A stretch of 64,000 nt of DNA from Escherichia phage LF82-1. The translations under genes were made by a program, and so were the position numbers. Under the pieces are notes generated by a model that did not search any database, was not told the DNA's origin, and saw nothing but the letters and a program-made list of their open reading frames with translations. Of this stretch, positions 55,955 through 56,152 are shown piece by piece. Position 1 is the stretch's first letter; every line of letters begins with the position of its first letter. The stretch lies in sequence record PV648359; one strand, written 5' to 3'.

Positions 55955-56152
55955 ATGTTTAAACTTCCATCGTTAATCAACGCTATTAAAGGCAATAAAA
56001 AGAAAACTGCTATCGCTGCAATAGTTGTAGGTGGCATTATTTCATGGAACTTCGGTATCGCACCGGTGTTAGTTGCTAATGGTATTATAGTTCCTTCTGT
56101 TCCATTGGATACTGTAGTTGATTTGGCCTTTGCTATTATAGGGCTTGTTTAA
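55955..56152 (+). CDS. small hydrophobic membrane protein on opposite strand between 56 and 61
   Basis: 65 aa, RBS AAGGAG 7 nt upstream, two hydrophobic segments. Confidence 0.5.
   Translation: MFKLPSLINAIKGNKKKTAIAAIVVGGIISWNFGIAPVLVANGIIVPSVPLDTVVDLAFAIIGLV

Follow-up and report, generated by a model that had tools for sequence, protein, structure and literature searches.

A conserved opposite-strand gene for a predicted late membrane protein between genes 56 and 61 of T-even phages

The gene that most closely resembles the one discussed here is RB69ORF029w of phage RB69 (NP_861719.1), which encodes a protein of 65 residues and lies on the opposite strand between genes 56 and 61. In the RB69 genome this annotation is of long standing. 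In phage T4, the reference annotation places dam between the same two genes, as the original prediction for this locus stated. All T4 early and middle transcripts have one polarity, and only late transcripts run in either direction; several T4 sites are transcribed on both strands at different times (Geiduschek and Kassavetis, PMC2988020). Of the 50 T4 late promoters listed in the same review, 32 carry the exact TATAAATA box, and the commonest natural variant, with A at -13, accounts for nine (PMC2988020). We have analysed the 56-61 interval in a 64,000-nucleotide stretch of Escherichia phage LF82-1 (PV648359), referred to below as the window. The 65-aa protein encoded there is 95% identical to RB69ORF029w, with 3 substitutions, and the two genes agree in position, in strand, in a 4-nt overlap with the stop codon of gene 61 and in the AATAAATA box that precedes them. 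We find no difference of substance between the two; both are annotated as hypothetical, and their family, phrog_2024, has no assigned function.

The features of the locus are collected in Table 1. The original prediction described a 65-aa plus-strand ORF with an AAGGAG ribosome-binding site between genes 56 and 61, embedded in an otherwise minus-strand region, and this description proved exact. The coordinates and the ribosome-binding site are as given, the start codon is the first ATG past an in-frame stop (from the ORF listing and the sequence), and of the 171 CDS from XUL00561 to XUL00731 (record positions 64024-151737) no other is on the plus strand; it is the one gene that faces against 88 kb of early and middle genes. 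It is separated from gene 56 by a spacer of 88 bp, and its stop codon shares 4 nt (TTAA) with that of gene 61, an overlap that is also found in T4, RB69, RPN226, ESCO47 and VR25. Questions concerning the whole genome were answered on the complete and near-identical record PV648360.1 (Escherichia phage LF82-2, an RB69-like Mosigvirus), whose coordinates minus 32,000 give those of the window. The two records differ by 2 SNPs in 49.3 kb, at window positions 8914 (G versus A) and 31036 (C versus A), and the following 13.9 kb are identical. The 56-61 region itself is 100% identical to LF82-2 and sibling isolates and about 98% identical to RB69-like Mosigvirus phages. An antisense 40-aa ORF at 55915-56037 (minus strand) was discarded, T4 having no comparably long ORF on that strand at the corresponding place. 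An Rfam scan of 55300-57200 returned only a chance miRNA match far below threshold and gave no sign of a structured RNA. Elsewhere in the window, a homing endonuclease gene (11854-12495, minus strand) is located between two aerobic ribonucleotide reductase subunit genes.

Table 1. Features of the 56-61 locus, in window coordinates
Feature	Position	Strand	Remarks
Gene 56, dCTPase / NTP pyrophosphohydrolase	55345-55866	-	phrog_173, E = 1.6e-45; XUL00605.1; divergent left neighbour
Likely MotA-dependent middle promoter of gene 56	55900-55924	-	Similarity to T4 P(M)16.53
Late-promoter box AATAAATA (predicted)	55926-55933	+	21 nt before the ATG; consensus TATAAATA with the A(-13) variant
Shine-Dalgarno AAGGAG	55944-55949	+	5 nt before the ATG of the 65-aa ORF; read from the sequence
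65-aa ORF	55955-56152	+	Type A small membrane protein (predicted), orthologue of RB69ORF029w; GenBank XUL00606.1, 'hypothetical protein'
Gene 61, DNA primase	56149-57171	-	phrog_47, E = 3.8e-102; XUL00607.1; convergent right neighbour

The ORF is a real gene under purifying selection and not a chance reading frame, a conclusion that we base on its occurrence, its pattern of substitution and its invariant residues. Conservation, the point on which the original prediction had staked the ORF, is evident: by tblastn, 692 phage records contain it, with a coverage of at least 80% in 685, and dN/dS in its frame is low, ranging from 0.05 to 0.34 over nine pairs taken within and between lineages. The residues W-N...P...P are invariant in both of the paralogue types described below. 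Between the window and ESCO47 ORFs, the substitutions are distributed 15/3/32 over the three codon positions, with third positions in excess. The match to phrog_2024 extends over the full length of the protein (residues 1-65 on profile positions 1-65 of 65, E = 1.4e-26, hmmscan). A strong ribosome-binding site, AAGGAGG or TAGGAGG, precedes the small ORF in T4, RB69, VR25, UPEC01, 212, RPN226 and ESCO47, and in these seven phages, as in the window, the gene occupies the same opposite-strand position between 56 and 61 and abuts the 3' end of gene 61.

The family consists of two paralogue types, A and B, which are about 23% identical (pairwise E = 6e-5). Type A, whose members include the window, RB69 and T4 proteins and the first ORF of VR25, adjoins gene 61 in Tequatrovirus (T4), Mosigvirus and Gaprivervirus. 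Type B was found in 117 records, including VR5/VR25 (Gaprivervirus), JS98/Bp7, and phages of Klebsiella, Enterobacter, Pectobacterium and Salmonella; in most of the records listed, the annotation beneath the match is gene 61 or gene 56. Members of type B, such as VR25 gp032 (YP_009209774.1) and ESCO47_00131, share with type A their size, locus and strand as well as a W-N...P...G...P-x-V core, but their C-terminal tail is non-hydrophobic and does not have the two acidic residues of type A. Type B may stand alone or form a tandem with type A in which either of the two comes first. The tandem ORFs lie between 56 and 61 in VR25 (L008 3001-3407) and ESCO47 (L012 1005-1398); the order is A-B in VR25 and UPEC01, and B-A, with an 8-nt overlap, in the Mosigvirus ESCO47. 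In such arrays a late-type box stands before the first ORF only, and the last ORF keeps the 4-nt overlap with the gene 61 stop. At the level of Mosigvirus, gp61 at an identity of at least 95% and the small ORF at one of at least 80% were each found in 154 records. A frameshift, which may reflect genuine decay or an error of sequencing, shortens the small ORF of phage 4E10 to 41 aa, and phages 212 and SP18 have a truncated B copy. Based on these cases, single copies of the small ORF would appear to be dispensable in some isolates, unless the changes are sequencing errors.

The only names found for members of phrog_2024 are 'hypothetical protein', which stands in the annotation of hundreds of genomes, one 'Holin' that is unreviewed, and some labels that are plainly spurious. 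At E up to 10, the 65-aa protein matched no family in Pfam or NCBIfam, and a PDB sequence-profile search gave no match. Foldseek against the BFVD viral predicted structures retrieved only orthologues and weak 63-aa relatives, and a word-indexed protein search retrieved close relatives only. Scanned exhaustively with an HMM, 1.84 billion representative proteins yielded 6 matches, of which the full-length ones resemble the family and the others are short fragments; none of them linked the family to another. In the searches run here, the family was found only in records of T-even-type phages. Our search of the literature found nothing specific on RB69ORF029w, on ribosome profiling of T4, on unannotated T4 ORFs or on small late membrane proteins of T4. 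The small ORF belongs to an already known but uncharacterised family and is in its usual place; as far as the sequences compared here indicate, it would be an ancestral conserved gene of T-even phages (Tevenvirinae), located always between 56 and 61 on the opposite strand. Almost every T4-type coliphage, T4 included, has it next to the primase gene.

The modestly new point concerns T4 itself, whose reference annotation omits a conserved, selected and apparently late membrane-protein gene. The T4 orthologue is a 66-aa ORF at 17738-17938 (plus strand) of NC_000866 (L003 4739-4939), 54% identical to the window protein, and it sits in the 309 bp of unannotated sequence that separate dam from 61. 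It is preceded by AAAGGAGG, which includes an AAGGAGG ribosome-binding site, it has a GATAAATA box 21 nt upstream, and its stop codon shares the usual 4 nt with gene 61. The ORF is unannotated in all of the records examined (NC_000866, AF158101, KJ477684, K03113 and X01416). In a collection of 15 billion proteins, the exact T4 protein was found only in raw-read assemblies, and it has no NCBI accession. The T4 locus differs from the window in that dam separates the small ORF from gene 56, whereas nothing lies between the two in the window.

The orientation of the ORF, which the original prediction had regarded as notable, has a simple explanation: late transcripts of T4 run either way (PMC2988020), and a late-promoter box is present upstream of the ORF. 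From this AATAAATA box, a transcription start is predicted at about 55939-55940. A TATAAATA-type box is thereby placed about 6 bp upstream of the predicted start, the arrangement of late genes, for which a -35 element is not needed. In every lineage examined, a box of the form xATAAATA is located 16-24 nt before the first small ORF, as AATAAATA in RB69 and RPN226, GATAAATA in T4 and CATAAATA in VR25, UPEC01, 212 and ESCO47, and the boxes of all lineages differ at the first base only. In the 64-kb window, xATAAATA occurs at 15 sites, counting both strands; the other plus-strand sites with a long ORF beside them are those ahead of the known late genes 34, 36 and t. We note that an exact TATAAATA is also present at 55338-55331 (minus strand), 31 nt upstream of soc (55063-55299, minus strand); it corresponds to P(L)15.32, the late promoter in the T4 annotation of soc, and provides a positive control for the motif scan.

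No sigma-70-like promoter for the ORF was found on the plus strand, and an early sigma-70 promoter was rejected for this reason. The upstream TATAAAGC at 55915-55922 was also rejected as a late box: it has two deviations, at the last two box positions, and it is not seen in the upstream sequences of T4 or VR25. From the conserved and rare box, the polarity rule, the lack of a sigma-70-like promoter and the standing of the ORF as sole plus-strand CDS, we infer gp55-dependent late transcription with a start near 55939-55940. The promoter may be weak, because the -13 position is A, G or C and never the consensus T in the lineages examined. Within 2.4 kb downstream of the ORF there is no plus-strand intrinsic terminator, and the late transcript should therefore run antisense into gene 61. 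Facing the other way, back to back with the late box and 1 bp from it, is a likely middle promoter of gene 56. It consists of a MotA-box-like CGCTTTA (55924-55918), a 12-nt spacer and a -10 element TAGAAT (55905-55900). The same geometry is seen in T4 P(M)16.53 (TGCTTAC, 12 nt, TATAAT; X01416.1), which is annotated upstream of gene 56 and whose transcript is noted in NC_000866 as the oriA primer. The element at 55900-55924 is likely to be the equivalent of P(M)16.53.

The product was originally described as having two hydrophobic segments. This is literally true, but only one of them, residues 18-41, is a credible membrane span by hydropathy; the C-terminal 24 residues form a short amphipathic helix, whose insertion is disfavoured by a summed Hessa energy score of +5 to +8 kcal/mol. 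An AlphaFold2 model based on an alignment of 13 sequences has helices at residues 3-11, 15-41 and 51-62 and a mean pLDDT of 79. The first 18 residues contain five K/R and no acidic residue, whereas residues 42-65 contain no K/R and two conserved D/E, and terminate in ...AIIGLV. On the strength of the positive-inside rule, we predict a single-pass inner-membrane protein with its N-terminus in and its C-terminus out. Four residues, W31, N32, P37 and P47, are invariant across types A and B, and a further three (G43, V49 and G63) are near-invariant. The invariant residues are located in the outer half of the predicted span and in the stretch just beyond it, and we therefore suggest that the conserved core most likely makes contacts on the periplasmic side of the inner membrane. 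A signal-anchor-release span was considered and rejected; the Gly/Ala/Ser-rich composition that would fit it (0.46) is specific to Mosigvirus, with values of 0.21-0.33 elsewhere.

We consider it probable, taking the reading as a whole, that this is an ancestral T-even gene for a late membrane protein that acts at the periplasmic face, and that the absence of dam has nothing to do with it. Late in infection, RNA polymerase bearing gp55 would start at the AATAAATA box and produce a transcript with a leader of roughly 15 nt that carries the AAGGAG. The 65-aa product would insert into the inner membrane, leaving the basic amphipathic N-terminus (net +5) in the cytoplasm, spanning the membrane at about residues 18-41 and exposing the 24-residue acidic amphipathic tail to the periplasm. 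There it would act in the late phase by contacts at the periplasmic face of the membrane, while the late transcript would also continue antisense into gene 61.

By implication, the original prediction set the ORF in the place of dam, and it took the lack of dam and the orientation to be notable. The absence of dam was confirmed, not only in the window but also by the search of the rest of the genome that had been proposed: T4 Dam found no homologue by tblastn in the window or in the remainder of the complete PV648360.1 (best E = 1.8), and no methyltransferase is annotated anywhere in that record. With dam missing from the genome and the 65-aa ORF alone in the 56-61 interval of the window, the ORF could be seen as a lineage-specific replacement of dam and the loss of dam as a notable trait of this phage. 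We give this almost no credence. T4 carries dam and the orthologous ORF side by side, which already refutes replacement, and the ORF family is present across T-even genera. The cargo of the slot between the small ORF and gene 56 differs from phage to phage: T4 has dam there, RPN226 an HNH endonuclease and ESCO47 a paralogue. The slot is empty in the window, RB69, VR25 and the Tequatrovirus 4E10, and most ORF-bearing genomes are without a T4-type dam. The T4-type Dam, at an identity of at least 90%, occurs in only 182 records, and the small ORF of the T4/Gaprivervirus type in 533. Since T4 has both genes, it is the small ORF that is the constant feature in the genomes compared, and dam is accessory cargo in a variable slot. 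The absence of dam is unrelated to the small ORF and represents ordinary accessory-gene variation; it is normal for the genus and common even among the closest relatives of T4. We note that the dam slot varies within Tequatrovirus, RPN226 having the HNH endonuclease (L015 471-1121) and 4E10 nothing (L014 1035-1305). The layout of the window is thus the standard RB69-type arrangement, and the observation from which the analysis started matters little; the 56-61 locus is, rather, a clean example of a variable cargo slot beside a fixed gene.

The remaining alternatives accept the gene and assign its function differently. Its main function could lie in the RNA: a late transcript antisense to gene 61 would shut down the primase/early operon or interfere with it, and the peptide would be secondary. 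The 4-nt overlap with the gene 61 stop is kept in all lineages, whichever paralogue abuts, the missing terminator leaves the way into gene 61 clear, and transcription of both strands at different times has precedents in T4 (PMC2988020). However, purifying selection acts on the amino acids, the Shine-Dalgarno sequence is strong and conserved, and the invariant residues are common to paralogues of such low identity, all of which argues that the protein itself is selected. We regard a mainly RNA-level function as quite unlikely; the RNA may play a part as well, but it cannot explain everything. A holin or pinholin-like lysis protein, oligomerising into holes in the inner membrane, seems to us equally doubtful. 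The protein is small and hydrophobic, its gene has a late-promoter box, its invariant membrane-embedded Asn could drive self-association, and the OE5505 orthologue is named 'Holin' in UniProt/UniRef. That name is unreviewed, however, and other sources give 'hypothetical protein' or spurious labels. Holins typically have a charged cytoplasmic C-terminal tail. The type A tail has no K/R and a hydrophobic end, and the ESCO47 type B tail has one K only; the protein has one credible span where a class II holin or pinholin has at least two. The neighbouring genes encode a dCTPase and a primase, with no endolysin or spanin beside them to form a lysis cassette, and the genome already has the canonical T holin (window 31364-32023), spanins (window 7867-8510) and rI and rIII-type genes. 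Less probable again is that the N-terminal 41 residues are a cleavable signal peptide and that the active product is the 24-residue amphipathic acidic peptide in the periplasm. An A-x-A-like site does follow the span (A-I-A|HG in T4, A-L-A|HG in VR25, L-V-A|NG in the window), and G43, P47 and V49 beyond it are among the most conserved residues. However, typical signal peptides have a much shorter n-region and h-region than the 17 and about 23 residues seen here, the window and RB69 proteins have Leu at position -3, and the invariant W-N...P lies within the putative leader, where it would not be expected if the leader were discarded. We continue to favour the intact, membrane-anchored protein with contacts at the periplasmic face.

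For this protein we suggest, as a tentative guess that falls somewhat short of an even chance, a role as an envelope modulator of late infection, in lysis timing, lysis inhibition or the exclusion of superinfecting phage. The guess is based on the late timing, the membrane location and the conservation on the periplasmic side, as well as on duplication, fairly fast divergence between genera and the occasional loss of a copy. It is possible, though unlikely, that this overlooked late gene of T4 and all its close relatives supplies both a new player at the periplasmic face, such as an additional participant in lysis inhibition or in the late exclusion of superinfecting phage, and a convergent transcript that silences the primase operon late. 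A conserved membrane protein, predicted to be late, in the T4 model is in any case well defined as a target and could be studied at little cost by deletion and by tests of topology and interaction.

Two further observations concern the genome at large. Outside the window, PV648360.1 has genes annotated as arabinose-5-phosphate isomerase, phosphoheptose isomerase and nucleotidyltransferase (98963-101851 and 126546-127532), and no glucosyltransferase is annotated in the record. This set is consistent with the RB69-type arabinosyl-hydroxymethylcytosine modification of DNA (described in PMC6024577). Between genes 61 and 41, at 58549-59584 of the window (minus strand), imm and an imm.1-like gene lie beside sp, as in RB69. 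The 61-41 interval of T4 has sp and no imm, so that two exclusion genes are clustered in the window.

Among known phage proteins, the class II holins and pinholins, such as S21-68 of phage 21, are similar to the 65-aa protein in length, in hydrophobicity and in late expression (predicted in our case), but it differs from them in having no second span, charged tail, dual-start motif or lysis-cassette context. T4 Imm (superinfection immunity), Sp (spackle) and RI (antiholin) are likewise small phage proteins at the inner membrane or in the periplasm, and imm and sp lie in the same region, 2-3 kb from the 65-aa ORF. RI combines an N-terminal membrane segment with a periplasmic effector part. The three T4 proteins have no sequence similarity to the 65-aa protein, and their genes are on the early strand. 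We suggest that the resemblance to Imm, Sp and RI is one of kind, to be taken as a lead for function and not as membership.
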